Shown here: positions 9,848 to 29,788 of the stretch, piece after piece
Layout of the letters: the number at the start of each line of letters is the position of its first letter
How positions within the stretch are numbered: position 1 is the stretch's first letter
IMG/VR virus record: IMGVR_UViG_3300045988_123188
DNA length: 29,910 nucleotides
Reading direction: 5' to 3' (one strand)
Source: a virus
Lineage: Duplodnaviria; Heunggongvirae; Uroviricota; Caudoviricetes
Program-made: the position numbers and the translations under genes
The notes under the pieces: generated by a model
The model's database searches: none
Seen by the model: only the letters and a program-made list of their open reading frames with translations
What the model was told of the DNA's origin: nothing

Positions 9848-9870
9848 CAAAACCTCCTGACAAAGATACC

Positions 9871-9888
9871 GTGCGACCACGGTCGCAC
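9871..9888. promoter_or_regulatory. sopC-like palindrome GTGCGACCACGGTCGCAC (putative SopB/ParB centromere site), ~25 bp upstream of the 286-aa gene start
   Basis: 8-bp inverted repeats around a 2-bp AC core; one of five near-identical copies; resembles the F sopC motif TGGGACCACGGTCCCA as I recall it. Confidence 0.6.
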
Positions 9889-9912
9889 GCTCCTGAATAC
9901 ATGCCCTGTTTC

Positions 9913-10090
9913 TTCCACCCTCGCACAGGACTGGCGAGCATGAGGGACAAACCCGCGAATCATTAGTGCGGTAAAAACCCGGTGTGCATCGTTTTTGATT
10001 ATTTCCGCACACTCGCGCAGAGGAGTTCCCCGTCGGGCTACGGTCATGGTTAATGCGGAAATACGGCGACGATGCAGCGCGGTATTTAAT
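9913..10090. repeat. direct repeat copy B (partner of 8128-8300)
   Basis: See copy A; copy B carries a perfect 9-bp inverted repeat TATTTCCGC...GCGGAAATA that is imperfect in copy A, with one compensatory pair. Confidence 0.7.
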
Positions 10091-10108
10091 GTGCGACCAC
10101 GGTCGCAA
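10091..10108. promoter_or_regulatory. sopC-like palindrome GTGCGACCACGGTCGCAA
   Basis: Second copy, directly abutting repeat B. Confidence 0.6.
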
Positions 10109-10127
10109 ACGAGAAACAAAGAGATTT

Positions 10128-13083: not shown

Positions 13084-13110
13084 AAAAAAACCGCCATAAA
13101 GGCGGCTTGT
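13084..13110 (-). terminator. rho-independent terminator (minus strand) in the late-operon leader, tR'-like
   Basis: Minus strand reads CAAGCCGCCTTTATGGCGGTTTTTTTGTG: GC stem, 6-nt loop, T7 tract. Confidence 0.55.
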
Positions 13111-13173: not shown

Positions 13174-13192
13174 GCTTTTTCGTTTTTGTGCT

Positions 13193-13210
13193 GTGCGACC
13201 GTGGTCGCAC
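13193..13210. promoter_or_regulatory. sopC-like palindrome GTGCGACCGTGGTCGCAC (inverted core GT)
   Basis: Third copy, between the small-gene cluster and the late promoter. Confidence 0.6.
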
Positions 13211-13215
13211 AGCTT

Positions 13216-13456: not shown

Positions 13457-13696
13457 TCAATCTTGAAACTGGAAATCAACATCAGCCATAAAGCGGTTCA
13501 ACTCAGCCAGTTTTGGCCCCATAGTCCCAACTAAGCGACCAGCCAGTCGGTCTGTTAGGTTGGTACTGTTGAAACCATATTCCTTTTCGAAACGTTCAAC
13601 CTTCTGCCACAACTCATACAGTTCGTTAGCTATCTCCGCAACATCGTCGCGCATTTTTTCGTTACCTTGATAATTCATAATATCCTCCAAATTCAT
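13457..13696 (-). CDS. hypothetical small protein (79 aa)
   Basis: Track ORF MNLEDIMNYQGNEKMRDDVAEIANELYELWQK... Confidence 0.4.
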   Translation of the reverse strand: MNLEDIMNYQGNEKMRDDVAEIANELYELWQKVERFEKEYGFNSTNLTDRLAGRLVGTMGPKLAELNRFMADVDFQFQD

Positions 13697-13843
13697 ATAG
13701 TTAGTGGGTTATTGCCTCTCAATGACACGAACTGTAACTCTGCCAAACGAACACATCCAGTGTTATTTTTCGCTTTTTAGTGAAATTTTTAATTTGCGTT
13801 GTTTTCTTGTTTTGGTGTATTTTATGGATATGGAGGCTATAAT

Positions 13844-14155
13844 ATGTTTAACGTGATAACCCACCCTGCAGCACTGGATGAACTGCTTGAACTACCAGAT
13901 GATTTGCGAGGTCGCATGACCAGATTAATTGAGCGACTGGAGAAAGAAGGCAACAAACTGAAGATGCCCCATAGCCGTGTAATAGGTGGAGGGCTTTTTG
14001 AACTACGAGTAGGGGATAAAAACATCGCAAGAACGCTGTACGCCTACGCGACTGGTAACGAAATTTATCTATTGCATGCATTTGTAAAAAAGACACAGAA
14101 AACACCGGTGAAGGCTATCGAAATCGCCAGAACTCGCCTGAAGGAGATGAACTGA
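13844..14155 (+). CDS. type II toxin, RelE/ParE superfamily, Gp49-like/HigB-like
   Basis: ATG at 13844 with GGAGG SD (MFNVITHPAALDELLELPDDLRGRMTRLIERLEKEG...); ~100 aa; stop overlaps the start of the downstream HTH gene (TGATG). Confidence 0.7.
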   Translation: MFNVITHPAALDELLELPDDLRGRMTRLIERLEKEGNKLKMPHSRVIGGGLFELRVGDKNIARTLYAYATGNEIYLLHAFVKKTQKTPVKAIEIARTRLKEMN

Positions 14156-14442
14156 TGAAAGCGAAAGGCATCCCGTTTAACGAAGTAAAAGAAAAACTCC
14201 TCAACACTCCAGAAGCCGTCAAAGGATATGAAGAGGCCGACAAAGAGCTGGAGATGGTCGAAATGCTATACGAAATGAGGGAAAGAGCAGGTTTAACGAA
14301 ATCAGCTCTGGCTGAACGAATGGGGTTGCGACCGTCAGCCATCAGCCGCCTGGAAAGCAATCCTTTAGGGGCAAGTATGAAAACTTTGGCTAAATATGCT
14401 CATGCCTGCGGCGCAACCATCGATATTCGCGCTGTTTATTAA
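14155..14442 (+). CDS. HTH (XRE-family) antitoxin, HigA-like
   Basis: 95 aa with HTH signature TKSALAERMGLRPSAISRLE; translationally coupled to the toxin; toxin-first order typical of HigBA. Confidence 0.7.
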   Translation: MKAKGIPFNEVKEKLLNTPEAVKGYEEADKELEMVEMLYEMRERAGLTKSALAERMGLRPSAISRLESNPLGASMKTLAKYAHACGATIDIRAVY

Positions 14443-14457
14443 TTAGACTCTTTTACT

Positions 14458-14478
14458 ACCCCGTCCAGAAGGGCGGGG
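14458..14478. terminator. GC-rich hairpin CCCCGTCC-AGAA-GGGCGGGG between converging units (weak T tract)
   Basis: Perfect stem seen in sequence immediately after the antitoxin stop. Confidence 0.35.
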
Positions 14479-14484
14479 TGTGCA

Positions 14485-14688
14485 TCAATGATGTGAACGC
14501 TCAACAGCGATAGTTTTCTGACAATGCTGGGCAATCTCTCGCGACATGTTGATGAGTCGTGAAACCTCACCAATATGTAGGCTGGCTTCTGGAGAAGCCA
14601 GGGTGACGCTAACCAGATCCAGAACGGCGTCAATATCTCTTAAATTTGAATCGAGTTGTTCAAGAGTTGATACGGCTGCTTCAGACAT
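14485..14688 (-). CDS. hypothetical small protein (67 aa)
   Basis: Track ORF with ATG confirmed; weak SD. Confidence 0.35.
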   Translation of the reverse strand: MSEAAVSTLEQLDSNLRDIDAVLDLVSVTLASPEASLHIGEVSRLINMSREIAQHCQKTIAVERSHH

Positions 14689-14770: not shown

Positions 14771-15013
14771 TCAATGAATTAACTGCGTAAACTGCTGTGT
14801 GGCCCGATACTTATGCTCTCTCCCTATGCCACGATCAACTTTCTCAAGAAGTCCAGTACGGACAGCAGAATCAAGCATCCTTTTAACAATTCTGCTATTT
14901 AACCCAACATCAAAAGCAAGCATCGAAGCGAAAACAAACCCATCACCACCATCAGAAAAGCTCTTTTCGCTCCGTTTTCGTATCATTTCAAAAAGCAATG
15001 CCTTTTTATCCAT
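14771..15013 (-). CDS. hypothetical small protein (80 aa), possible winged-helix DNA-binding fold
   Basis: ATG with GGAGGG SD. Confidence 0.45.
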   Translation of the reverse strand: MDKKALLFEMIRKRSEKSFSDGGDGFVFASMLAFDVGLNSRIVKRMLDSAVRTGLLEKVDRGIGREHKYRATQQFTQLIH

Positions 15014-15373: not shown

Positions 15374-15826
15374 TTACTTAACCCAATTAACTACACCGCC
15401 AGCGACCACAACCGCCCTTTCACAGTCACGCTCATATCTCAAAGGTTGAAATACACCATCAATAAAATATTTATCTCCACCAAACGCTGCAGGAAGTGAA
15501 ACAGAAAACTGAACATGACCATCCGGAGTTACCGGAGAGTTGCCAGCCTCATACGCCACACGCATCCAGTGCAGAAGCGTTTCAGTGCTCACACAGCCGC
15601 AATCAACATCAATTTTGCCGTGCTGCCGTTCCAGCCATTGCTCAAAAGTTAACTTGTAAGTTTGGCTTACAGGTTCTGCACTATCAGCTTCGCGCCGCTT
15701 CTGTAGCTCTGCTGCCATCGCTCTCACGACTTCAACTGGTGCCCTTGCAGCAAACTCTATGTTGGTGATCAGCTCATTAAGATATTGCTCGCCTGGATAC
15801 TGTTTCTTATCGGTTATAGTGGTCAT
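15374..15826 (-). CDS. hypothetical protein (150 aa)
   Basis: Start at internal ATG (MTTITDKKQYPGEQY...) with AAGGAGAGTGAT SD. Confidence 0.5.
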   Translation of the reverse strand: MTTITDKKQYPGEQYLNELITNIEFAARAPVEVVRAMAAELQKRREADSAEPVSQTYKLTFEQWLERQHGKIDVDCGCVSTETLLHWMRVAYEAGNSPVTPDGHVQFSVSLPAAFGGDKYFIDGVFQPLRYERDCERAVVVAGGVVNWVK

Positions 15827-15827
15827 A

Positions 15828-16214
15828 TCACTCTCCTTTTCCCTGAAGCATAGCAGCGCGGCAGGCATTCCAGCCTCTCACCTCTGCAATAGCGGCAACA
15901 GCATCAACCGCGTACATGCTAAGAGGATTAGGCATTGGTTTTTCTTCCGGTACTACTGGAACGGGTGGAGCGGCGTAGACCTCAATAATTCCATTATCAA
16001 TAGGCCATTCTCCATCCTTGAGGTAGTCACTTGTGCCGTCAACTTGCTGTTCTGCAATGTGGAATGCACCTATTGGTTTTGCTTCCAGCGATGCCAGAGC
16101 AATTCGTGCCAGTTCTTCCGCTTCTTCTGCTGGCAGTACAACGTTGCTACCAGGTCCGTATGTTTCGCGCCACTGTTTGATTGTCAGTAGTCGCTCTTTG
16201 GTAATAGTGGTCAT
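15828..16214 (-). CDS. hypothetical protein (128 aa)
   Basis: MTTITKERLLTIKQW...; ATG with AGGAG SD; 1-nt spacing to the downstream gene. Confidence 0.5.
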   Translation of the reverse strand: MTTITKERLLTIKQWRETYGPGSNVVLPAEEAEELARIALASLEAKPIGAFHIAEQQVDGTSDYLKDGEWPIDNGIIEVYAAPPVPVVPEEKPMPNPLSMYAVDAVAAIAEVRGWNACRAAMLQGKGE

Positions 16215-16224
16215 GTGTTACTCC

Positions 16225-16488
16225 TTAACCCGCAGTGCTTTCAACTGATGAGGGGAACAAAATCCTTTCATCAAATCCGGCATTCATATCATGGACAGCA
16301 ACACACCAATCCATCGACGAACGATTATCAAGAGCCTCCATGATTTCATCCATGCGGCGCAGGTCATACAGGTAAATGCTTTTATCGCCAATGGTGTAAA
16401 AACCAATTTTTTTCGGTGATGGGCAGCGATCAAGAACGTCCTGTAATTCGTTCAACCATGCCCGTTCTTTTTTTGTTAAAGTTGCCAT
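16225..16488 (-). CDS. hypothetical small protein (87 aa)
   Basis: Start at internal ATG (MATLTKKERAW...) preceded by the same AAGGAGAGTGAT SD block as the gene at 15826. Confidence 0.5.
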   Translation of the reverse strand: MATLTKKERAWLNELQDVLDRCPSPKKIGFYTIGDKSIYLYDLRRMDEIMEALDNRSSMDWCVAVHDMNAGFDERILFPSSVESTAG

Positions 16489-16489
16489 A

Positions 16490-17038
16490 TCACTCTCCTT
16501 TGATGCGAATGCCTGTTGCAATGCTGTTTATGATGCTGTCAGTGCATGGGGTAGAAAGCTGGGCATCTCCAGCAATTTTCATGACCTCAACATCTGCATA
16601 TCGAATACCGAGGTGTATCAGACCGGCTATGCCTGACTTAAGCCGAGCATTTTCCATAAATAGAACTTTTGCCCGCTGTTTTTCTGCTTCAAGCTCAACG
16701 CGCAGCTTCCCTACCGTTAGCGCAATATCCTCGTTCTCCTTGTCGCGGGATTTTATGTATTGCTGGTTTCTTTCCCGTTCATCCAGTAGTGCCAGCGCAA
16801 CATTTGGATTAAAGGCAGCAATAAATTCAGCGTTTGCGTAAGCCTGAGCATCTGTTTCAACCAGGCAGTTAACATGACATTCTGCAATCACGCCACCGGG
16901 TTCTCCTTTCCATTTTTGGCAAACAAAAACTCCTGTTAAATTGCCGTGCTGGTTAACAGATGTATGCCCTACGATGTAGCTCCCTTTCGTTGCCTTTTCT
17001 GCCGCATCACGCAGTGCCTGATAATTAATTTCGCTCAC
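16490..17038 (-). CDS. Ead/Ea22-like family protein
   Basis: Contains AEFIAAFNPNVALALLDE plus a coiled-coil, the Ea22-like signature by recall; GTG start with GGAGG SD. Confidence 0.55.
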   Translation of the reverse strand: MSEINYQALRDAAEKATKGSYIVGHTSVNQHGNLTGVFVCQKWKGEPGGVIAECHVNCLVETDAQAYANAEFIAAFNPNVALALLDERERNQQYIKSRDKENEDIALTVGKLRVELEAEKQRAKVLFMENARLKSGIAGLIHLGIRYADVEVMKIAGDAQLSTPCTDSIINSIATGIRIKGE

Positions 17039-17259
17039 TCTTCATCCTCCAAGTCGGCAACGGCGTCCATCACATCAGAACCGCGAATAACCTCAAAAGC
17101 ACGGCAGGCCATTTGAAATACCAGTTGCTCTTGCGGGTGAGGAGACTCCCAATATTTGAAGCCTGGGCGATGCGTGTACCCCATCATTGAATAAAAATCA
17201 CCAGCAAGCTTAATCGCGGCATCGACAAGCTCTCTGTTAGTCATTCTTTTTCCGCTCAC
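17035..17259 (-). CDS. hypothetical small protein (74 aa)
   Basis: GTG start with AGGAGG SD; 4-nt overlap with the downstream gene. Confidence 0.45.
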   Translation of the reverse strand: MSGKRMTNRELVDAAIKLAGDFYSMMGYTHRPGFKYWESPHPQEQLVFQMACRAFEVIRGSDVMDAVADLEDEE

Positions 17260-17551
17260 TGGCTGCCTCCTTTACTGGGCTTTCGAATGTATCAAACTCA
17301 AACAACTTAACTACGTCATCAAACAGGACATAATCGCCATCAGAATCTTCAGTCATGTCAGCGCCACAATCCTGACCGAACGAGTCACAACCATCCATAT
17401 CAAGCTCGTATCGCTTGAGTTTTGCGATATTTGATAAATTCAGCGCCAGTACAGCAAGGTCATAAACCTCATCAGCGGTATACCCGGCACCATGCCCATA
17501 CATTTCAATACGGGATATGATTTCTTCTACACGTTGTTTTGTGATCGTCAT
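17237..17551 (-). CDS. hypothetical acidic protein (104 aa)
   Basis: ATG confirmed; GGAAGGTGAG SD. Confidence 0.45.
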   Translation of the reverse strand: MTITKQRVEEIISRIEMYGHGAGYTADEVYDLAVLALNLSNIAKLKRYELDMDGCDSFGQDCGADMTEDSDGDYVLFDDVVKLFEFDTFESPVKEAASERKKND

Positions 17552-18180
17552 TTTTGCTCACCTTCCTGTTCTTCCAGAAAAATACGCATAGCCTCAAGCA
17601 TCTCTTCGGTATCATACGGAGACAGCTTGTCACGCAGGATGTGTTCAATGCTGTTAATGAACTTGCGGATTGCTTTGCGTTCAATTTCAGCCAGGAAAGC
17701 GTCGGTGGCTGGGGTTTCCGTGAAGTTGTCCTCCCAACCGTAGTACTCCTGACGACAGAAGTTATTAAATTCCTTCTCCGACTGTTTAAGCCCCGCATTC
17801 TCCGCCGCCAGCGCCGTGCGATTACCCTCCAGCTCTGCAATGCGCTGTTTTGCGGCATCCAGTTCAATCGACAATTTTTCCAACTGCTCTTTATGCTTCT
17901 TATATTCCTGATATGCGTGCCAAGACTGACCTTTGCGCACACTATCAGTGATATCAGCAACCTGCTCTGGTGTTAGCGTGGTCAGTGGCTGTGATGGAAA
18001 AATCAGCACTTTCCCGGAATCCCAATCAAAACCAGCGTGAATTGACTGAACCTCAACTGAGGGTGTTGAACCAATGCTGCCAGGCGAATGAATAACGATT
18101 GTTACATCCATATCGCGACGATGGCTGTGGTTGTTGGACAAAATACGATTCACCAACTCAGAAAATTTGGAAAATTTCAT
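17548..18180 (-). CDS. hypothetical protein (210 aa) with central coiled-coil, possibly Ea22-like
   Basis: ATG confirmed; coiled-coil segment LEKLSIELDAAKQRIAELEGNRTALAAENAGLKQSEKE. Confidence 0.45.
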   Translation of the reverse strand: MKFSKFSELVNRILSNNHSHRRDMDVTIVIHSPGSIGSTPSVEVQSIHAGFDWDSGKVLIFPSQPLTTLTPEQVADITDSVRKGQSWHAYQEYKKHKEQLEKLSIELDAAKQRIAELEGNRTALAAENAGLKQSEKEFNNFCRQEYYGWEDNFTETPATDAFLAEIERKAIRKFINSIEHILRDKLSPYDTEEMLEAMRIFLEEQEGEQK

Positions 18181-18467
18181 GCTGATTCCCCTTTCTCTGC
18201 TCTCTCCTGTCGGAACATCACTATCATCAGGTCGCCTTTTGTCGCTATCTTGGCTGTTGTGCCTGGCTCAATGCGGCTAAGTTCAAATGCGTCATAGAAC
18301 GCCTCTAACACTTTCTGGCGTCTTTCCTGTTTGCGGTGCTTTCCCCACTGCTTTAGAAAAACAGAGGCCGCCCACTTCCCCGCACTGAACATGATGTAAA
18401 ACCAACCGAGAAGTGCCAGACCGATATTTAGGGCCGTATCGATCGTTATCGTGGTGTCGATATTCAC
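18177..18467 (-). CDS. small membrane protein (96 aa)
   Basis: GTG start with AGGAGG SD; hydrophobic segment ALNIGLALLGWFYIMFSAGKWAASVFL. Confidence 0.45.
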   Translation of the reverse strand: MNIDTTITIDTALNIGLALLGWFYIMFSAGKWAASVFLKQWGKHRKQERRQKVLEAFYDAFELSRIEPGTTAKIATKGDLMIVMFRQERAEKGESA

Positions 18468-18886
18468 TACGCCACCTCCTGTAAATTTCCCTGATAAAAA
18501 GCCAGCACACGCTGCATAACTTCACTTTTCCGGCAATCGTGACAAATCATGTTCAAGCGCCTGTCGTAACGACGTATTTCTCCGTCAGGTAATGACCAGA
18601 TAAGGTCTGGATCAACCACTACCGATTTCTTCGGCTTTACTCTTGATAGTTTTTTACGGGCGTTTTGCCAGTCCTTGCGTGCTTGTGCAGACAGAAATAT
18701 CCCGGAGCCAGAGATATACAAATCACCACTGGCAGCAAGCTCTCTTGATAAACGACTAACAGCACACCGGCTAATACCAGTTTCATCCGCAAGTTGCCTA
18801 ACCGTTCCTCGTCCATTCAGGCGCACGAGTTCCACAATTTGTTTATTCAGTTCTTCCCTCTGTTCTGGTGTAAAAGCCTTTGCCAT
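18467..18886 (-). CDS. HTH-containing putative DNA-binding protein (139 aa)
   Basis: HTH-like segment TVRQLADETGISRCAVSRLSREL; AGGAG SD; start overlaps the upstream gene stop. Confidence 0.5.
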   Translation of the reverse strand: MAKAFTPEQREELNKQIVELVRLNGRGTVRQLADETGISRCAVSRLSRELAASGDLYISGSGIFLSAQARKDWQNARKKLSRVKPKKSVVVDPDLIWSLPDGEIRRYDRRLNMICHDCRKSEVMQRVLAFYQGNLQEVA

Positions 18887-19485
18887 TACGATTCTCCTTG
18901 CCCTTTTACAAGACGGGAGAAAATTGCGGATACATATTTAGCCTGATGAATAGCATCAGCCAAGGCATTGTGTCGTTCGCCATCAAATGGCATATCTTTT
19001 TTAGGATTAAAACCAATAAACTGACCAAGATTAACGATTGTTCGAACATCCTGATCATTAAAATATTCCCACGGACAGGCTAAGCCAACGCGCTCATAAG
19101 CACCGCGTAAAATTACATTATCGAACGTTGCTCCATTTCCCCATACTTTCAACTTTTTTAAATTACATGCATGGCAAGTAATAAAGTGTGATAATTCAAA
19201 AAGTGCATCCTTAATATCAAGGGCATCATTAGTACAAATAGCGGCTCTGGCTTCCTTGCTCTGTTTCAACCACCATAAAATGGTATCACCATCGGCGATA
19301 CCTCCATTCAACATCGAGCTTCTGAGATTCACTGGCACATAAAAAGTAGGACCTAATTCCTCACTTTCTGGAGAAAAAAACACTGCCCCGATAGAAACAA
19401 TTGGAGCACATGTGTTAGTACCCATTGTTTCAAGATCAATCATTACATCAGACCGTTTCCTGTCGTAAATAATCTGATTAGTCAC
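18886..19485 (-). CDS. DEDDh-type 3'-5' exonuclease (DnaQ/RNase T-like)
   Basis: Exo I motif MIDLETMG, Exo II FDNVIL, Exo III ERHNALADA; GTG start with GAGGAG SD. Confidence 0.7.
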   Translation of the reverse strand: MTNQIIYDRKRSDVMIDLETMGTNTCAPIVSIGAVFFSPESEELGPTFYVPVNLRSSMLNGGIADGDTILWWLKQSKEARAAICTNDALDIKDALFELSHFITCHACNLKKLKVWGNGATFDNVILRGAYERVGLACPWEYFNDQDVRTIVNLGQFIGFNPKKDMPFDGERHNALADAIHQAKYVSAIFSRLVKGQGES

Positions 19486-19508
19486 GAATAATTCTCCTCA
19501 ACGTTTAT

Positions 19509-19712
19509 CTATACCCAAATTTTCTGTTGATATGTTCTGGATGGTTTTGGCGTTCTTTCTGATTCAGGTAAATGAACATAAACGCAATATCCATCACCTA
19601 AAAAATCAGAACGAACAACCAGAACTTTCTTACCACGCCGCCGATAAGTATCTGAAAGACGCTCTGCTTCATCATGCGTCATCGGCCCCTGCTTAAATGG
19701 CGTTATTTTCAT
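19509..19712 (-). CDS. hypothetical small protein (67 aa)
   Basis: Start at internal ATG (MKITPFKQGPMTHDEAERL...); the track ORF N-terminal extension MRPWSH is translation of the palindrome. Confidence 0.4.
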   Translation of the reverse strand: MKITPFKQGPMTHDEAERLSDTYRRRGKKVLVVRSDFLGDGYCVYVHLPESERTPKPSRTYQQKIWV

Positions 19713-19938
19713 TTTCTTGTGCGACCACGGTCGCACCCTCTCTGATTTCCAAGTAACGCTTAATCCAAAGATTTTCTATATGCTTATTACCTGGCTGATT
19801 TGATAAATACCAATCGGCAATTACAGACTGCTTATTACTATCTGGTCGTGTCCTGTAACCACAAGTTGGACACCAGATAACATATTCATTTCTTACCCCC
19901 GAATACCTTAATTCTGGCTTCGACGGTTTCCTGAACAT
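19693..19938 (-). CDS. hypothetical zinc-ribbon-like small protein (81 aa, CLCK...CPTCG)
   Basis: Start at internal ATG (MFRKPSKPELRY...). Confidence 0.4.
   Translation of the reverse strand: MFRKPSKPELRYSGVRNEYVIWCPTCGYRTRPDSNKQSVIADWYLSNQPGNKHIENLWIKRYLEIREGATVVAQENENNAI
19719..19736. promoter_or_regulatory. sopC-like palindrome GTGCGACCACGGTCGCAC overlapping the RBS region of the gene at 19712 and the 3' end of the upstream gene
   Basis: Fourth copy. Confidence 0.6.
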
Positions 19939-19945
19939 AACTTGT

Positions 19946-20656
19946 TTACAAAGGCAGAATGGCACTTCCTGCCCGATGGCGTTTGATGATTTCACTGCGC
20001 TTCTCCGCCGCATTTAATAATGCAGTTCGATTTAAGCTCAGACATCGCGACTTAATTAAAAGCCAGCGTTCTTTATAATCTTGTCTCCAGCTATCAATAG
20101 ATATATTCAGTAGAAAACTCAGATGCCTGTCCTGTTCTCTCTCATCAACTGCCTCAGCACACGTAAGTTCTGATTTAACCTGCTGTGCCGCGTAATAAAT
20201 CAATTTCCGCATGGCTTTTTTCGTGGAGGCCTTCATTTTTTTAAAGCCGCCCCCCGAATGAGCAACCAGAAAATCAAGCCATAACCACTGACAAACAATC
20301 ACATCATTGTTGTAATCAGGCTTGCATCCGTAGCAATAATAAAGCCAGGCTGATTCCTCGTTATTCAACTGACCAATAGCCCTGCGCCAGCTGGCGCTCT
20401 GAAAATCAATATCAGTGAGCAACATTGATGATTGTTTAAATGTTTTCCCCTGGTGGAATCTAACCGGCTCAGCAGGAACGGACACTTCGTATGAGTTATC
20501 ATCCCCCACACTGATTGACCGGACTGGTTTATTGTTAAACCGTCCTGACCTACCGAGACGCATCTGCTCAAGCTGGACCTCCAGAATGCCACGCTGGCGA
20601 TAATGAACATCAGCCAATGCCGTAGAGACGCAGCTGCGTATATACTCAAGCTCCAC
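19946..20656 (-). CDS. hypothetical 236-aa protein first downstream of cro; possible Q-like late antiterminator by position only
   Basis: Track ORF; the Q assignment rests only on my recollection that N15 immB is cB-cro-Q and on the PR'-like leader at ~13.1 kb; no sequence motif recognised. Confidence 0.3.
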   Translation of the reverse strand: MELEYIRSCVSTALADVHYRQRGILEVQLEQMRLGRSGRFNNKPVRSISVGDDNSYEVSVPAEPVRFHQGKTFKQSSMLLTDIDFQSASWRRAIGQLNNEESAWLYYCYGCKPDYNNDVIVCQWLWLDFLVAHSGGGFKKMKASTKKAMRKLIYYAAQQVKSELTCAEAVDEREQDRHLSFLLNISIDSWRQDYKERWLLIKSRCLSLNRTALLNAAEKRSEIIKRHRAGSAILPL

Positions 20657-20867
20657 GCTTACGACTCTCCTTAATCGACTGCTTTACCCGCCGAGTTGTA
20701 AAGTCACTCTTCAGCTTATAAGCAGTACGAACTTCAATATCGCTTTGCCGCAATGAAGGAATCTCTCCAGCGGTTAACCATTGGTAAACAGCTCCGGGTG
20801 TTACACCTACCCCTGCCGCTGCTTTTTCTACACTGCCAAAGTGGCGAATAAGTTCTTCTGGTTTCAT
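20646..20867 (-). CDS. Cro-like HTH repressor
   Basis: Internal ATG (MKPEELIRHFGSVEKAAAGVGVTPGAVYQWLTAGEIP...), 73 aa, HTH; divergent from the repressor gene across an operator-bearing AT-rich region. Confidence 0.65.
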   Translation of the reverse strand: MKPEELIRHFGSVEKAAAGVGVTPGAVYQWLTAGEIPSLRQSDIEVRTAYKLKSDFTTRRVKQSIKESRKRGA

Positions 20868-20897
20868 GTTGTTATTATAAACAATAAACAACAATTA

Positions 20898-20936
20898 AAG
20901 CCAGCTATAATAAATAAATTTTATAGCCAGCTATAA
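20898..20936. promoter_or_regulatory. operator region: palindrome TTATAGC-CA-GCTATAA (~20921-20936) plus half-site copy AGCCAGCTATAA (~20898-20912) between cro and repressor genes
   Basis: Inverted 7-bp half-sites seen directly; position is that of OR/PR/PRM in lambdoid switches. Confidence 0.5.
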
Positions 20937-20958
20937 GAAGATCATTTATGATTACAGT

Positions 20959-21555
20959 ATGAAAACACGAGGCGAACGACTGAAAGCACGCCGTTTAGAG
21001 ATGAAGCTGACGTTGCGAGAAGTTGCTGAGGCTGTCGATATCTCTATAGCAGGCGTCCAAAACTTAGAACGTGGCGACGTAATGCCGTCACTGGAGATAG
21101 GTATTGCCCTGGCTAAGTGCTTACGCAAGCCAGTGCATTGGGTGCTATATGGGACAGAATATGACCCTGACCGCATTCCTGTTATTGGCACAACTGAAAG
21201 TGGGCCGGATGAAGAGTGGAAGCCGGGACAGGTTCCAAATACTGAGCGATTCCTGCCATTCATCAGCCAGCGCAATACTGTGTATGCGTTAACTATCAGC
21301 AATCTTACGCAGGGAAACTATCAGCCAGGCGATTTTCTCCTGGTCGATTCTGCGCTGGAACTGGTCCCCGGCGAGGATGTTCTGGTTCGTGATACTGCAG
21401 GAAATATCACTATCCAGCGCCTGGCCCGTTTTGATGATGAAAATTACTATCTGGATGGAACAAACTCACAACGCGCCATCTTCAGGAAAAGCGATCTTGA
21501 ATTTGTTCACCAAATAGTCGGAACGATCAAATCATTCATGGTTGAGGGTAGATGA
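20959..21555 (+). CDS. prophage repressor, CI/CB-like (N-terminal XRE HTH plus C-terminal S24/LexA-like fold)
   Basis: HTH LTLREVAEAVDISIAGVQNLERG; C-terminal region GDFLLVDSALELVPGEDVLVRD resembles the lambda CI C-terminal domain; ATG has no SD, suggesting a leaderless mRNA as for lambda cI from PRM. Confidence 0.7.
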   Translation: MKTRGERLKARRLEMKLTLREVAEAVDISIAGVQNLERGDVMPSLEIGIALAKCLRKPVHWVLYGTEYDPDRIPVIGTTESGPDEEWKPGQVPNTERFLPFISQRNTVYALTISNLTQGNYQPGDFLLVDSALELVPGEDVLVRDTAGNITIQRLARFDDENYYLDGTNSQRAIFRKSDLEFVHQIVGTIKSFMVEGR

Positions 21556-21656
21556 CTTAATACGGGGTTTATTGTTTGCTGTAAATCTGGTTTAATGCAG
21601 GGCATATGTTCTGTGGGTTGACTCAGGTTACAGCAGCAGAAAAAAGACGAAAAAAA

Positions 21657-21686
21657 ACCCGAGTCGGCAAACTCGGGTCCTTTTCA
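21657..21686. terminator. bidirectional rho-independent terminator ACCCGAGT-CGGCAA-ACTCGGGT flanked by A8 and TTTT
   Basis: Perfect 8-bp stem with T/A tracts on both sides; lies between the repressor gene and repA. Confidence 0.55.
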
Positions 21687-21800
21687 GGAAGCAGCCACAA
21701 CAACGCGACGGATTCCGTCAATTCAAGATGTGTTTATTGTGGCTGCTCCTGCGGATTTTTTCAACCCGAAAAAACATAATTCGCATGGAATGGCTAAAAA

Positions 21801-24800
21801 ATGACATTAAACGATTTCTATGCGGATCGCTTTGGCAGCGATCCGTTCTCGCTAATTGAAGCAGCACGGGATGAACTAACCGAGCTGGCACAGATGGCTG
21901 GTATCAACTGGCCTGCCTGTTCCGACAACATCCAACTCAACCCTCGCGGGGGGGTTGAGCGTTACTCTTCATACAATAAAACATCTCCAGAAGCTCTCGA
22001 AAAGAGCCTGAAAGGACGCGTAGAAATTTACTCCCGGCTGGAACACAGCAAAGGGATTGATTACCCGTTCATTAACTTCGTCCATAAAGGCAGCGATGCT
22101 GGCTCATGGAGCGGTTTCTCCTTCCTGTTTTCTGAATATCGCCGTGAGCAACAACGGAATAATGCGACCGTGGTCGCACAACCGGAAGAAGAACGGGAAA
22201 GAATAGAACGTCAGGCCGAAGCACGTCGTCGCCGTGAAGAACAAAAACGAATTAATGACCTGAAAAACAACCAAATGGACCATGAACGTTTGCTGGGATG
22301 GCTGGCATTCCACAGCGCGTGGGAACATGCTCCGGCTGAAGACGGCTCATGGCCATATGCGATTAAAAAAGGTATTCGTGACGTTTTTAGTTCATGTGAT
22401 GTGCGTCGCGTGACCAGTCACGACAGTGCGAAATGGAGTCGGGGACCAACCACATATATGGCTATCCCTCTGGCTCACCTGGACGGTCGTTACGATGGTC
22501 GTATTGTGGGTTGGCAGCGAATCGACAAACAAGGTGGGAAATACCAGACCAGCGCAGTAACCAGCGGCGATTTCGTCGGTGCCTGCTTTGTTATCGGTGA
22601 GCTGAAAGGGGCGCAAAACATCGCTGTTACAGAAGGTTTTGCTACTGGTGCATCCATCTGGCTTGCCACGAAAAAAGATAAACGCTTTGACGCTGTGGTT
22701 GTCGCTGTATCCGCTAACAACATGGTTCATGTTGTGGAACAACTGGTAAACATGTACCCGGCGGTAAAAATCACCTGCGCACTGGATAATGACCGGAAAT
22801 CTGCCACAGAAGGAAAAGGGAATACCGGCCTGCGGACTGGCTATGAAATCTTATCGAAATTCAACGATGTCCGCTGCGTCTATCCAACTTTTGAAGACGA
22901 TCCGCAAATGGAGTGCAGTGACTTCAACGACCTGCACAAACTACGTGGACTTCGTGAAACAGCACGTCAACTATTTGCAACAGCAAACCGCCTGAAAACC
23001 GGTACTGATTTGCTATCTCTGACGCTCAACCGCCTGAAGACAATTAAGCGGGATAACCGTCGTACTTTTGCCAAAGAGCTGCTGAGAGCGGTGGATATTG
23101 GCATGCTAACCTGCCCGGTTCCTAACAGTCCGTCAGATTTATTTAACATGTTCTGCATCGTTCTGCGTGAAATGGGACTGGAAAATATCTATCGCGCTAC
23201 GGTAAAAGACCACATTGCCCGTCGCCTGAATAAAAAGTGCCGTATTGCCCAGGCTCCGCGCTCTTTCAGCGAACGCATAACTGATCCCAATAAACGCCCT
23301 CAACATATCACCTATAAGCGTTTTGAAACTTCGGTAATGACCGATGATCTCCTGAAGTACGTGCAATCACTACAGGGGATAGTCATCGTCCGTGCTGGTA
23401 TGGGTTCCGGCAAATCTACTGGATTGTTACGACCGTTAATGCATAGCTCAGAACGTGGTATCTCTGTTGCTCACCGTGTCTCCCTTATTGGTGGCCTGTG
23501 GGAAATGATGACAGAAGGAAAAGGTGTAAAAGCCGATATCCTGCACTATCAGGACCCTGGCTATCAGGAAATGGCTCCATACGCCAGTAAACTGACCATC
23601 TGCATAAACTCGATTGTTAAAAACTGCTGGCAACCGTTGATGCGCCAGCACGACTATTTTGGCTTTGACGAGGCCACACAAGGGCTACGTGCCGTTCTTT
23701 CCGGTCGGGCTATGGAAAACCCAGTGGCTGTATTCAATACGCTAATTGACGCGCTGGCCAGAACGGAACAACACCCAATAATGGTGGATGCTGATGCGAA
23801 CGATCTGCTGGTTGACCTGGCTGAACTGGCTATGAAACGCCGTGAAGAACTAGGTTTACCGGCATGGCTGCAGATCCACGTAATTGAATTACCTGTTGAT
23901 GTTCGCAACCGCGAAACAGGTGAGCCAATCCGGGTTTTTTATACAGAAAAAGATCGCATCATGACCGAGGTGGTGAAAGCTGTATCGGATGGCGAAAAAA
24001 TCATGTTGGCCACCGACAGCTCCACCTTTGCAGAAGATGTGACAGCCACCCTGAGAATGCATTTTCCTGGTAAGAAATTTCTGTGTGTAAACCAGAAAAA
24101 CAAACCAGAGCCAGAAGTTGAAGCATTTACCAATCAACCGAAAAAGATGGTCAAAAAATACGACGGCCTGATTTATAGCCCGTCTATTTCATCCGGCGTG
24201 TCGATTGAGCAAAAACATTTTGACCGTCATTTCGGCATGTTCTGTGGTGAAGTTGTACCCAGCGACGCAGTGCAAATGCTACGCCGCGACCGTACAGCAA
24301 AAGAATTTATTATCGGCTTTGATAAAGCTCGTGCAAAACGTGAAACTGACCCGCAAAAAATAGAACGAGCATTCGCCCAGGCATTGCTTGCTACCGCAGG
24401 TATGAACGGTGAACTTACGGATGTCGTTTTCGATGGCGACCGTATATCAATGGGGGTGGCCAATACCGACTTTACCAGGATGAAAATTAAAGCAGCCGCA
24501 ATTGAAGCGACTGCGCGTAACGACTACGCCAGCAACATGATCTGCATCATGCACAGCGACGGTTATAAGGTATCACCGCTGGCCACCGATTATGCTGCGA
24601 ATGATATCGGTAAAGATCTGCGTAAAGAAGCGCGGGATATTGTGTGGGAACAGACACTGGATCTGCACCTCAATACAGAAACTCCACAAGAATCAGAGCG
24701 TGAAAAACTGCTAAAAAAACGCGCGCTGACGCTTGAAGAACAGGCAAAACTTGTCCGCTGGGATATTGAAAACGAACTGAAACTACCGGTTGAAGAAGGC

Positions 24801-26999: not shown

Positions 27000-27110
27000 T
27001 GACGTGCGCGTCGTTTTGACGGTAAAGTTTACTCCGCTACGGTAAATCCCGTAGCCGGGCGTAGGAACCCGAGTAAATGAAGCGCACAACACGCGCCAGC
27101 GTGTTTTTTT
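27000..27110 (+). ncRNA. candidate small antisense regulatory RNA (c4/CA-like) of the anti-repressor locus, ending at an intrinsic terminator
   Basis: Hairpin GCTACGG-TAAATC-CCGTAGC (~27036-27055), terminator AACACGC-GCCA-GCGTGTT + T7 (~27088-27110); 7-nt blocks CGGTAAA and GTAGGAA are complementary to TTTACCG and TTCCTAC ~130 bp downstream in the icd leader (~27181-27200). Confidence 0.3.
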
Positions 27111-27273
27111 GTGTGTAAAATCTGCGTACACCAAATTTATGGTGGCTCAGATGGGGCAGCTTTTAGCTGGCCGGTTTCTTCGTTTACCGGTATTCCTACC
27201 CCCGTCTGGGCTACCGCCATATAGAGCGTAGGAACTCTGGTGGTAGCACGACCAATTAAACGGAGTGCATACC

Positions 27274-27874: not shown

Positions 27875-29788
27875 TTATCCGAAATATGTCAGCCATGCTA
27901 ACTGCATTGCTGATATAGGGCTGTTTGCACTGCCGGACCAAGCATAATTCTGGCCATTATAATGAAACTCAACAACGTATGAGCCATCACCAATATTTCT
28001 CACAGGCTTAAATACCGGCTTAGATACAGGTGAAGAAGGCGCGGGCGGTTGCTGTTCTTCTACGCTCTCTTCCTCTTCCTCTTCCTCTTCCTCTTCCTCT
28101 TCCTCTATCTCAATTTCGTCGTCATCCAGATCGTCATCCTCTGATAATTCATCCGTCTGTTCAGGTATTGCTTCCAGCTCTTCTTCGTCAGGCATAACGA
28201 TTTCTGGAGAATCTATTTTCAGCTGCCATTGTCCATTTTCGCCAACAAATTGCCCCAGAGCATCAGCAGCAAATTCCAGGTATCGACTAATCATTGTAGG
28301 GCTAAATTTGAATGCTCTTAGAGTGCTGTTCGTGATTTTTATAGAGGGGTCATGCTCTACCAGCTGCTTAACTGTGTTATGCAGACGAACCCCGGCATCT
28401 CCTCTGGCGAATCCTGGCATTTCGTCATCAAGCTGCTGCAATGCTTCCAGCCTGGTATTTTCGTTTCCAGTATTTGGCCTCCATGTCTTTGAGAAGTTGG
28501 CCAGCTTGAATTGCTTATAGTGTAATTGAGTGTTTTCATCGTCATGGCCTAAAATTTCCATAAAGAAAACATCCTCATCTACGTTTTTCCAACGAGGATC
28601 TACGCGGAAAAACATTTCATACGCAATACGGGCATAAATAGCACGACTATCTTTATAAACACGGCGGTCATCTTTGAAAAATGATTTAACCCACGGGTTA
28701 AAAGCCTTTGCTAATATGGCATTAATCCGTCCGTTTTCAGAGCGTGTGTCGTTATCTCCATAACCTTTAACGACATCATCAAAATCAGATGCTGCTGGGC
28801 ATGAGCGAAGTACATTTATTAAATAAACAAATGTTTTTGCTTCGCATAATGTATATATTTTTCTGGTTATATCATCAGAAGTTCTTTTTTTTGCTTGGCC
28901 TAAAAAATCAACGGTATACTTACCAGAAACAGTAAATGTACCTTGATACATAATCTCAATCATTCGTCTTCCTGACAATGCAGCAAGTGCAAATGCCAAA
29001 GGAGCCATACCTGAACGAGTGTTTAGATTATTTAATGTAGCAGGGCTATTTATAATATCGTAAATAGCTTGCATATATTTAGGGTAATCAATGACCACCA
29101 CGTTACGTTTCTTATTGTGCAGAACGTCCGCCCATCGTTGCTGGATAGATGCGCGTTCGGCAGGGCTTAGTTGAAGATGATAGAGAATCTCATGGTTAAC
29201 TTTTAGCTGATTCAACTCCTCAAGTAAGGCAGATCCTTGCTGTAGTAATTTATATAAATAATCGCGCTTATCTTTCCAGTTATCGCTAGTTAAATCAGAT
29301 ATGGCGAATTGCCACTCTTTATATTTATTTGATAATTTTAATAACTTATTATGACTTTTGTTATCACCAATTCTGATATTAGATAAATCTTCTGATAAAG
29401 GGAGAATTAATTTTAATTTTGCCTGTAAAGCTGACATTCTCTGGCGAATATCGGCAGCAGGTAGAGAAAGCCATGACAATAGCTCCTCATTATATAAAGG
29501 ATACTTTTCAGATAGGCGATGTATATTTTTTTCAAAGCTATGATGAAGTTTATCATCAAACCGTTTTCTGGCCCTGCTCATATAGGCATTGAAGGTGTTG
29601 GCTGTAATTCTTTTTTCTAATCCTTTCCCCCTAAACTTTCGCTTATCATTAAATAATGCATTTTTAAATTTTAATGCAACAGCCTTTATTTTTTTTGTTT
29701 TTTCCCCTTGAGGACGGTCAGAGTTATCTATTGACTCAACATCGCTAACAAGTGAGTTTATTAATTCACCGATTTTTACTTTGCTCAT
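27875..29788 (-). CDS. telN: protelomerase TelN (telomere resolvase)
   Basis: 637 aa; MSKVKIGELINSLV...KRITANTFNAYMSRARKRFDDKLHHSF..., YLYKLLQQGSALLEELNQLKVNHEILYHLQLSPAERASIQQRWADVL, NTRSGMAPLAFALAALSGRRMIEIM, RINAILAKAFNPWVKSF...RVYKDSRAIYARIAYEMFF (catalytic Tyr region) match N15 TelN as recalled; SD GGAGAGGAAA. Confidence 0.9.
   Translation of the reverse strand: MSKVKIGELINSLVSDVESIDNSDRPQGEKTKKIKAVALKFKNALFNDKRKFRGKGLEKRITANTFNAYMSRARKRFDDKLHHSFEKNIHRLSEKYPLYNEELLSWLSLPAADIRQRMSALQAKLKLILPLSEDLSNIRIGDNKSHNKLLKLSNKYKEWQFAISDLTSDNWKDKRDYLYKLLQQGSALLEELNQLKVNHEILYHLQLSPAERASIQQRWADVLHNKKRNVVVIDYPKYMQAIYDIINSPATLNNLNTRSGMAPLAFALAALSGRRMIEIMYQGTFTVSGKYTVDFLGQAKKRTSDDITRKIYTLCEAKTFVYLINVLRSCPAASDFDDVVKGYGDNDTRSENGRINAILAKAFNPWVKSFFKDDRRVYKDSRAIYARIAYEMFFRVDPRWKNVDEDVFFMEILGHDDENTQLHYKQFKLANFSKTWRPNTGNENTRLEALQQLDDEMPGFARGDAGVRLHNTVKQLVEHDPSIKITNSTLRAFKFSPTMISRYLEFAADALGQFVGENGQWQLKIDSPEIVMPDEEELEAIPEQTDELSEDDDLDDDEIEIEEEEEEEEEEEEESVEEQQPPAPSSPVSKPVFKPVRNIGDGSYVVEFHYNGQNYAWSGSANSPISAMQLAWLTYFG
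28067..28102. repeat. perfect hexanucleotide microsatellite (CTCTTC)6 inside telN, encoding a poly-Glu run
   Basis: Six tandem perfect units on the plus strand, equal to (GAAGAG)6 on the coding strand, giving EIEEEEEEEEEEEEESVEE. Confidence 0.85.

Follow-up and report, generated by a model that had tools for sequence, protein, structure and literature searches.

What role falls to two genes that read rightward inside a block of about 12 kb in which their neighbours read leftward? The pair occurs in a stretch of 29,910 nucleotides of tailed-phage DNA (IMG/VR record IMGVR_UViG_3300045988_123188), called the window throughout. A sequence-only reading had described it as a toxin-antitoxin (TA) module, inserted in reverse orientation and suited to plasmid maintenance or to anti-phage defence.

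Among the genes of the window are a lambda-like set for head and tail, others for lysis, a methylase gene, Q, cro and cB. RepA is 1331 aa long, and the protelomerase ORF (telN, 27875-29788) encodes 637 aa. Five copies of the palindrome annotated in phiKO2 as the plasmid partition site are also present. RepA, the protelomerase, cB, the partition-site palindromes and the phage genes together identify the replicon as an N15-type (Ravinvirus) linear plasmid-prophage. The plasmid-prophage lifestyle assumed in the sequence-only reading is thus borne out by protelomerase, repA, cB and centromere sites found in the window itself. Around the pair, identity to the window is ~99% in two Escherichia phages, YDC107_1 (genus Ravinvirus) and PhiR46_1, and ~76% in phiKO2, a phage of Klebsiella. 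Collinearity with the YDC107_1 record ends at ~15.4 kb. Matches to C4/isrK lie upstream of telN, in the anti-immunity region, and not antisense within the protelomerase gene.

Layout of the pair and its signals

An ORF survey from ~9.0 to 20.9 kb placed all credible neighbours on the minus strand and left the two genes as the sole plus-strand pair of a leftward block of ~12 kb. The GC skew is positive across 13750-14500 only. The order gp51-gp50, gp49-gp48, gp47-like, with the middle pair reversed, is common to N15, phiKO2, YDC107_1 and 32 IMG/VR loci. The features of the locus are the following.

13768-13785, no strand assigned: imperfect palindrome TTTCGC-TTTTTA-GTGAAA, candidate operator of the helix-turn-helix (HTH) antitoxin
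13794-13823, plus strand: candidate sigma-70 promoter of the TA operon, with -35 TTGCGT (13794-13799) and -10 TGTATT/TATTTT (13816-13823)
13832-13836, plus strand: Shine-Dalgarno sequence GGAGG of the toxin gene, 7-nt spacing to the ATG at 13844, conserved across all related loci
13844-14155, plus strand: toxin gene, N15 gp49 orthologue, 103 aa, ATG start, TGA stop at 14153-14155
14141-14146, plus strand: Shine-Dalgarno sequence AAGGAG of the antitoxin gene, 8 nt from the ATG at 14155, within the 3' end of the toxin gene
14155-14442, plus strand: antitoxin gene, N15 gp48 orthologue, 95 aa, ATG at 14155-14157
14457-14480, no strand assigned: GC-rich hairpin, 10-bp stem including G-U pairs, 4-nt loop AGAA

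The positions first proposed for both ORFs agree with the ORF listing and with direct reading of the sequence, and their orientation against the neighbours is equally clear. The left edge of the locus, set at 13799 in the sequence-only reading, has to be moved. It is a mere TTG of a longer mechanical ORF, and the records of N15, phiKO2 and YDC107_1 annotate the ATG equivalent to 13844. The toxin stop and the antitoxin start overlap by one base (TGATG, with the A at 14155 common to both). Taken with the Shine-Dalgarno sequence inside the toxin gene, this overlap is compatible with the translational coupling that had been claimed.

Upstream, gp50 and gp49 are separated by a gap of 147 bp that can be aligned well between the window, N15 and phiKO2. 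Of its palindrome, the right arm (GTGAAA) does not vary among the 25 distinct upstream sequences compared. The left arm is mostly TTTCAC, with one variable position in some variants, this window (TTTCGC) included, which gives the general form TTTCRC-N6-GTGAAA just ahead of the putative -35. The palindrome is missing from related loci in which the HicA/HicB pair described below occupies the place of gp49/gp48, and it is therefore part of the cassette, not of the backbone. The N15 record annotates the equivalent palindrome as a terminator stem-loop. Antitoxins of the HigA type bind palindromes in their own promoters (PMC11980606). Because of this habit, and because the palindrome is absent where the slot holds another TA pair, a role as operator of the HTH antitoxin seems more likely than the annotated terminator.

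The promoter of the TA operon was assigned by alignment with N15 and phiKO2, where the promoter-like equivalent reads TTGTGT/TTGCGT, 17 nt, TATATT. The putative element matches the consensus weakly. A sigma-70 consensus scan called no promoter immediately upstream of the toxin gene, so the assignment is a comparative one. An inverted repeat (13680-13697 and 13823-13840) was considered as a regulatory element and rejected, since its arms are the two divergent ribosome-binding sites. A search with Rfam over the TA region gave nothing at gathering score. A RyhB-like match at 13721-13792 (23.9 bits against a gathering score of 55, E=0.15) was treated as chance.

Downstream, the hairpin sits in a 42-bp gap between the convergent gp48 (plus strand) and gp47-like (minus strand) genes. 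The 58-nt segment that contains it folds at -22 kcal/mol, with z=-2.6 against shuffled sequences. A U-tract was sought on both strands and none was found, and a terminator scan gave no call. The terminator that N15 carries at the same place is canonical and rho-independent, with a U-run after a stem of 14 bp. Of the GC hairpin claimed after the pair, the structure itself stands at 14457-14480, but terminator function does not follow from it.

The encoded proteins

The HMM search proposed with the first description gave matches far beyond chance for both proteins. The toxin matches the Pfam family Gp49 (PF05973) with E=2.5e-29 and 101.6 bits (cutoff 23.9) over model positions 1-90 of 90, and the same domain is present in all full-length toxin homologues recovered. 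The family takes its name from N15 gp49. An NCBIfam search with the toxin returned zero matches. Among PDB sequences, phmmer found HigB of Streptococcus pneumoniae (6af3, E=5.5e-5) and HigB1 of Mycobacterium tuberculosis (7nbu/7awk).

In addition to an alignment of 39 homologues, an AlphaFold2 model of the toxin was made, which reached a pLDDT of 89.2 and a pTM of 0.83. The model consists of a short N-terminal strand (3-6), helices at 8-15 and 19-38, four strands within 44-82 and a C-terminal helix (89-102). In a Foldseek comparison with the PDB, the best match was ribosome-bound M. tuberculosis HigB1 (7nbu_Y, E=2e-6, TM 0.79), followed by S. pneumoniae HigB (6af4, TM 0.74), then YoeB and RelE. 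The toxin is thus predicted to have a RelE-type fold that ends, as is typical of Gp49-like toxins, in a long C-terminal helix. The structural matches of this model to HigB1, HigB, YoeB and RelE speak against a pair without a toxin fold, an outcome that had been named as fatal to the original proposal.

For HigB1 a catalytic pocket of K58, E66, R68, N73, R77, F93, K95, Q98 and K99 has been proposed (PMC9098466). In the phmmer alignment, HigB1 K58, E66, R68, N73, F93, K95, Q98 and K99 correspond to toxin R45, E53, R55, N60, F80, K82, Q85 and K86, an identical or equivalent counterpart for eight of the nine residues. The ninth, R77, aligns with T64, and an invariant arginine (R63) lies one position away. 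Toxin residues E53, R55, R63, F80 and K82 are invariant in the 39 homologues. The Pfam match, the predicted RelE/HigB fold and the retained pocket residues agree with the claim of a Gp49/HigB-like toxin of the RelE superfamily.

M. tuberculosis HigB1 (HigB-TAC, Rv1955; 7NBU/7AWK) and S. pneumoniae HigBA (6AF3/6AF4) share with the pair a RelE-type toxin fold with a long C-terminal helix (24-28% identity; TM 0.79 and 0.74 for the predicted model) and a HigA-type HTH antitoxin. Both are chromosomal systems, unlike the pair. HigB1 belongs moreover to a tripartite module with a SecB-like chaperone, and this chaperone is absent here.

The antitoxin matches Pfam HTH_3 (PF01381) with E=2.8e-12 over residues 38-90. 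Its matches among PDB sequences were M. tuberculosis HigA2 (7ewc, E=0.0015), HipB and S. pneumoniae HigA (6af3_B, E=0.009). The last of these is the partner of a Gp49-type HigB. An NCBIfam search with the antitoxin gave generic HTH matches only, all below threshold. Toxin-first order is the rule in the Gp49 TA family (PMC5906591, PMC11980606). With the HTH_3 match, this gene order and the orthology to N15 gp48, the assignment as an XRE-HTH antitoxin holds.

The toxin is 92% identical to N15 gp49 and 91% identical to phiKO2 Gp49 at the same position, and the antitoxin is 85% identical to N15 gp48 and 80% identical to phiKO2 Gp48. The alignments with N15 gp49 and gp48 run over the full length without internal gaps. 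Given this high identity and the conserved flanks and orientation, the pair is, on sequence grounds, the orthologue of N15 gp49/gp48. It shares with the N15 pair the lengths of 103 and 95 aa, the stop/start overlap, the slot between gp50 and the gp47-like gene, the reverse orientation, the upstream palindrome and promoter architecture, and a Ravinvirus linear phage-plasmid as host. It differs in DNA identity, which is just 77-80% with synonymous sites saturated, in the hairpin without a U-tract where N15 has its canonical terminator, and in the palindrome, the left arm of which is perfect in N15 (TTTCAC-N6-GTGAAA) and has one mismatch in the window. The pair is already known. RefSeq labels identical or near-identical copies 'type II toxin-antitoxin system RelE/ParE family toxin' and HTH regulator, so that annotation is routine, and the N15 orthologue is published.

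Selection on the pair was assessed from the window, N15 and phiKO2. Coding DNA is 74-81% identical among them, against 80-92% for the proteins. Where computable, dN/dS is 0.016-0.094 overall, with 0.02-0.04 for the toxin and ~0.09 for the antitoxin (N15 against phiKO2), and synonymous sites were saturated in the other comparisons. Measured against N15, no protein of the neighbourhood is as well conserved as the toxin (92%; gp50 82%, gp51 75%, gp47-like 56%).

These values bear on a degenerate, non-toxic relic, in which gp49 would lack harmful mRNA cleavage and gp48 would merely be an autoregulating HTH protein. Certain Gp49-family toxins, e.g. M. tuberculosis HigB2 and HigB3, are non-toxic upon expression (PMC9098466), so family membership alone is no proof of toxicity. 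Such members lend the relic a precedent, as does the apparent weakness of the TA promoter. It is countered by strong purifying selection on both genes (dN/dS 0.02-0.09), by a toxin conserved at 92% where gp47, gp50 and gp51 range over 55-82%, by counterparts for eight of nine catalytic-pocket residues, and by the N15 orthologue, 92% identical, which is reported as a functional stabilizing TA system. A relic is considered very improbable.

Exchange of cassettes between gp50 and the gp47-like gene

Searching IMG/VR with gp50 recovered 36 loci. The gp49/gp48 pair stands in the same place in 32 of them, one locus ends at a contig edge, and three (L028, L029 and L037) are without the pair. In these three the slot holds HicA (PF07927) followed by HicB (PF15970), in the same reverse orientation. 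An empty slot was sought among the 36 loci and none was seen. In a three-way alignment, homology between the window and the HicAB loci restarts right after the stop of the gp47-like gene and at a backbone block (~13718-13764) upstream of gp50. These limits on both sides bound a cassette at ~13765-14484.

The GC content of the cassette is that of its neighbours. The insertion claimed in the sequence-only reading holds in so far as the pair forms a discrete cassette that is swapped for HicAB in relatives. A recent horizontal event was rejected because of the neighbour-like GC, the saturated synonymous divergence between lineages and the lack of an empty site. These same observations make the pair an old resident of the phage lineage.

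The HicAB variant occurs in ~47-50 kb plasmids of Citrobacter and Enterobacter. Its cassettes share with gp49/gp48 the slot, the reverse orientation and the toxin-first order, and differ in that their toxin and antitoxin families are unrelated to those of the window. Cassettes on other replicons match the HicAB core at 78-80% identity (~80% on large Klebsiella plasmids and ~78% on ~90 kb E. coli plasmids). HicAB in the same slot and orientation indicates that TA function is conserved there. This argues that the slot would be under selection for 'a TA module' rather than for one particular regulator, and it speaks against gp48 as a regulator of the backbone.

Such a regulator has some plausibility, as XRE-HTH proteins are typical phage repressors and the pair diverges from gp50 across a conserved intergenic region. 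Here gp48 would act primarily as a phage transcription factor on the divergent gp50-gp51 or in the lysis-lysogeny decision, with gp49 as a co-regulator and no addiction module at all. The block upstream of gp50 is, however, retained in the HicAB relatives, and the palindrome and promoter are not. As the backbone block is kept without the gp48 cassette, the backbone is independent of gp48. The predicted fold of gp49 is that of RelE/HigB with catalytic residues and not that of a regulator, and the immunity functions of the window lie elsewhere (cB at ~20959-21555, the anti-immunity RNA at 27036-27221). The transcription-factor reading is barely credible.

What is new here is that the very slot of gp49/gp48 is filled by another TA family in related loci, a minor comparative point. 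It invites a doubtful, tentatively offered generalization: the junction of the gp47-like gene and gp50 in N15-type linear phage-plasmids might be a dedicated hotspot of TA exchange, occupied by Gp49/HTH in elements of Escherichia and Klebsiella and by HicA/HicB in those of Citrobacter and Enterobacter. The cassettes, always reversed and toxin first, would come from the TA pairs carried by plasmids in general, and a resident module might also provide defence or exclusion against competing phages or phage-plasmids. The swap offers a natural system for asking whether 'any TA' is needed at this place and whether the type of cassette affects incompatibility or competition.

Probable plasmid addiction and possible anti-phage defence

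The gp49/gp48 pair very probably serves an N15-like linear plasmid-prophage as a type II addiction module of the Tad-Ata or Gp49-HigBA type. Dziewit et al. (2007, J Bacteriol 189:1983) reportedly stated that N15 and SXT encode TA stabilizing systems homologous to tad-ata of pAMI2. Later papers describe N15 gp49-gp48, citing that work, as an experimentally identified TA stabilizing system of the Tad-Ata type (PMC5906591, PMC2701414, PMC3581621, PMC3606827, PMC12977533). Modules of this type, a COG4679 toxin with a COG5606/COG1396 antitoxin, stabilize mobile replicons (PMC2701414, PMC3606827, PMC4489591). Tad-Ata of Paracoccus aminophilus pAMI2 and s044/s045 of the SXT ICE resemble the pair in their architecture, in which the gene of a Gp49/DUF891 toxin precedes that of an XRE-HTH antitoxin, and differ in host and replicon (a circular plasmid and an ICE, respectively). 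Tad-type toxins are only distantly similar to other Gp49 toxins (PMC5906591). A functional analogue is phd-doc of P1, likewise a type II addiction module of a temperate phage that persists as a plasmid of low copy number (PMC12977533). Its proteins are unrelated to gp49 and gp48 (Doc is a kinase with a Fic fold, Phd an antitoxin resembling YefM), and its antitoxin gene comes first. The role in plasmid maintenance suggested for the pair is thus favoured, by analogy, by the orthology and synteny with N15, the phage-plasmid context and the published stabilizing activity of the N15 TA system.

The proposed mechanism would start at the pair's own weak promoter, from which both genes would be transcribed rightward, against the surrounding leftward operon, and translated in a coupled manner with the toxin first. 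The toxin would act as a RelE-fold ribosome-dependent endonuclease, cleaving mRNA at the A site of the ribosome. A ribosome-dependent mRNase activity has been reported for Gp49-family members (PMC9098466; PMC11980606 Table 1), and in a survey of 2025 the PF_gp49 toxins are entered as mRNases that depend on the ribosome, with the toxin gene placed first (PMC11980606). The XRE-HTH antitoxin would bind and neutralize the toxin and, alone or together with it, probably represses the operon via the palindrome upstream of the promoter. Upon loss of the linear low-copy plasmid, the unstable antitoxin would not be replaced in the daughter cell. The freed toxin would then arrest translation and growth, and plasmid-free segregants would be counter-selected. 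Autoregulation and antitoxin lability, as well as any interplay with antisense leftward transcription, are steps that we infer.

The distribution of the pair was examined in two collections. Close copies were found in 16 of 5426 complete E. coli genomes, all 16 on plasmids and none on a chromosome. This location, like the lack of an empty slot among the related loci, agrees with a module that would stabilize its own replicon. Of the carrying records in PLSDB, 28 of 29 are non-mobilizable, and most among the matches listed are ~46-48 kb in size.

A main role in anti-phage defence, by abortive infection or superinfection exclusion, would be compatible with addiction, and is held to be unlikely. 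An infecting phage would shut down host transcription or trigger loss of the antitoxin, whereby the mRNase would be freed, the infection aborted and the resident protected. TA modules are common as prophage morons with defence roles, and a gp49-family HigB in a tripartite TAC module is reported to act in abortive infection (PMC11980606). The latter example needs a SecB-like chaperone, however, which is lacking at this locus. The exchange of Gp49/HTH for HicAB in the slot resembles that of defence hotspots. Weak domain-level matches to PADLOC models were obtained as well, to NsnC for toxin residues 43-95 (2.6e-7) and to HTH regions of HTH_VI, capH and RmrA. These are partial domain resemblances and not system membership; the search of PADLOC-DB v2 found no membership in a defence system, the toxin matching only the C-terminal end of the 293-position NsnC model and the antitoxin giving generic HTH matches. 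The activity published for the N15 orthologue is plasmid stabilization, which likewise tells against defence as the main role.

As a probable addiction module, the pair has little significance beyond correct annotation. Through it the window can be recognized as an N15-type phage-plasmid in which a classical addiction module accompanies the Sop partition system, and such modules help to account for the persistence of ~46-kb linear plasmids in Escherichia, Shigella and Klebsiella. N15-type plasmids also have the Sop partition system with its dispersed centromere sites. Beside Sop partition, the contribution of the TA pair to plasmid stability may be small.

The toxin-antitoxin slot and its flanks

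The slot between gp50 and the gp47-like ORF holds a different cassette in some relatives. A HicA/HicB pair replaces gp49/gp48 in three IMG/VR loci (L028, L029 and L037, at about 2150-2900) and in the plasmids NZ_CP032182.1 and NZ_CP056423.1, which are Citrobacter-type N15-like elements. Reverse orientation and toxin-first order are common to this cassette and the gp49/gp48 pair of the window. Large Klebsiella plasmids and ~90-kb E. coli plasmids carry the HicAB core as well, with ~78-80% identity.

Features flanking the slot in the window

about 13718-13764: conserved block of ~45 nt (…CTCAATGACACGAACTGTAACTCTGCCAAAC…CACATCCAG), opposite strand, ahead of gp50
14485-14688: gp47-like ORF of 67 aa, adjoining the antitoxin gene

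The block upstream of gp50 is kept in the window, N15, phiKO2 and the HicAB-variant loci. Because the latter retain it too, it is assigned to the phage backbone. It may serve as promoter or leader for gp50-gp51; no Rfam match in it is significant.

The 67-aa ORF is named 'gp47' in the Escherichia phage YDC107_1. Its counterpart in N15 (NC_001901; 3188-3376, minus strand) is 56% identical and falls between genes 48 and 47, in a stretch without an annotated gene in the N15 record. The next ORF of the window, 14771-15013, is presumably the equivalent of N15 gene 47 proper.

Terminator and putative partition sites

An intrinsic terminator of canonical form lies between gp51 and the methylase gene.

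13088-13108, minus strand: AAGCCGCC-TTTAT-GGCGGTTT, followed by TTTTTGTG

It corresponds to the terminator annotated in N15 and phiKO2 ahead of their putative late promoter. The palindrome TGTGCGACCGTGGTCGCACA is present in five copies in the window, none being expected by chance.

Copies of the palindrome (at most two mismatches, better strand scored)

9870-9889
10090-10109
13192-13211, directly downstream of gp51, ~630 bp from the toxin start
19718-19737
22161-22180

The five copies are probably dispersed centromere sites of the N15 type, since the phiKO2 record labels the same sequence 'putative plasmid partitioning site'.

Early region and small RNAs

To the right of the toxin-antitoxin region, the window and YDC107_1 (CP025712.1) are not collinear (compared over about 15400-21800). 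The start of RepA lies at 21801 in the window versus the equivalent of 19654 in YDC107_1. Between gp46 and Q, the window therefore contains early-region genes, ~2.1 kb in all, that are extra or different.

Two adjoining RNA matches exceed the Rfam gathering score. Both precede small ORFs on the plus strand and the protelomerase ORF, which runs on the minus strand (27875-29788).

27036-27109, plus strand: isrK RNA (62.5 bits)
27135-27221, plus strand: C4 antisense RNA (73.6 bits)

An anti-immunity locus under small-RNA control is known from P1 and P7 and has been described for N15 as well. The region 27036-27221 is probably the counterpart of this locus.
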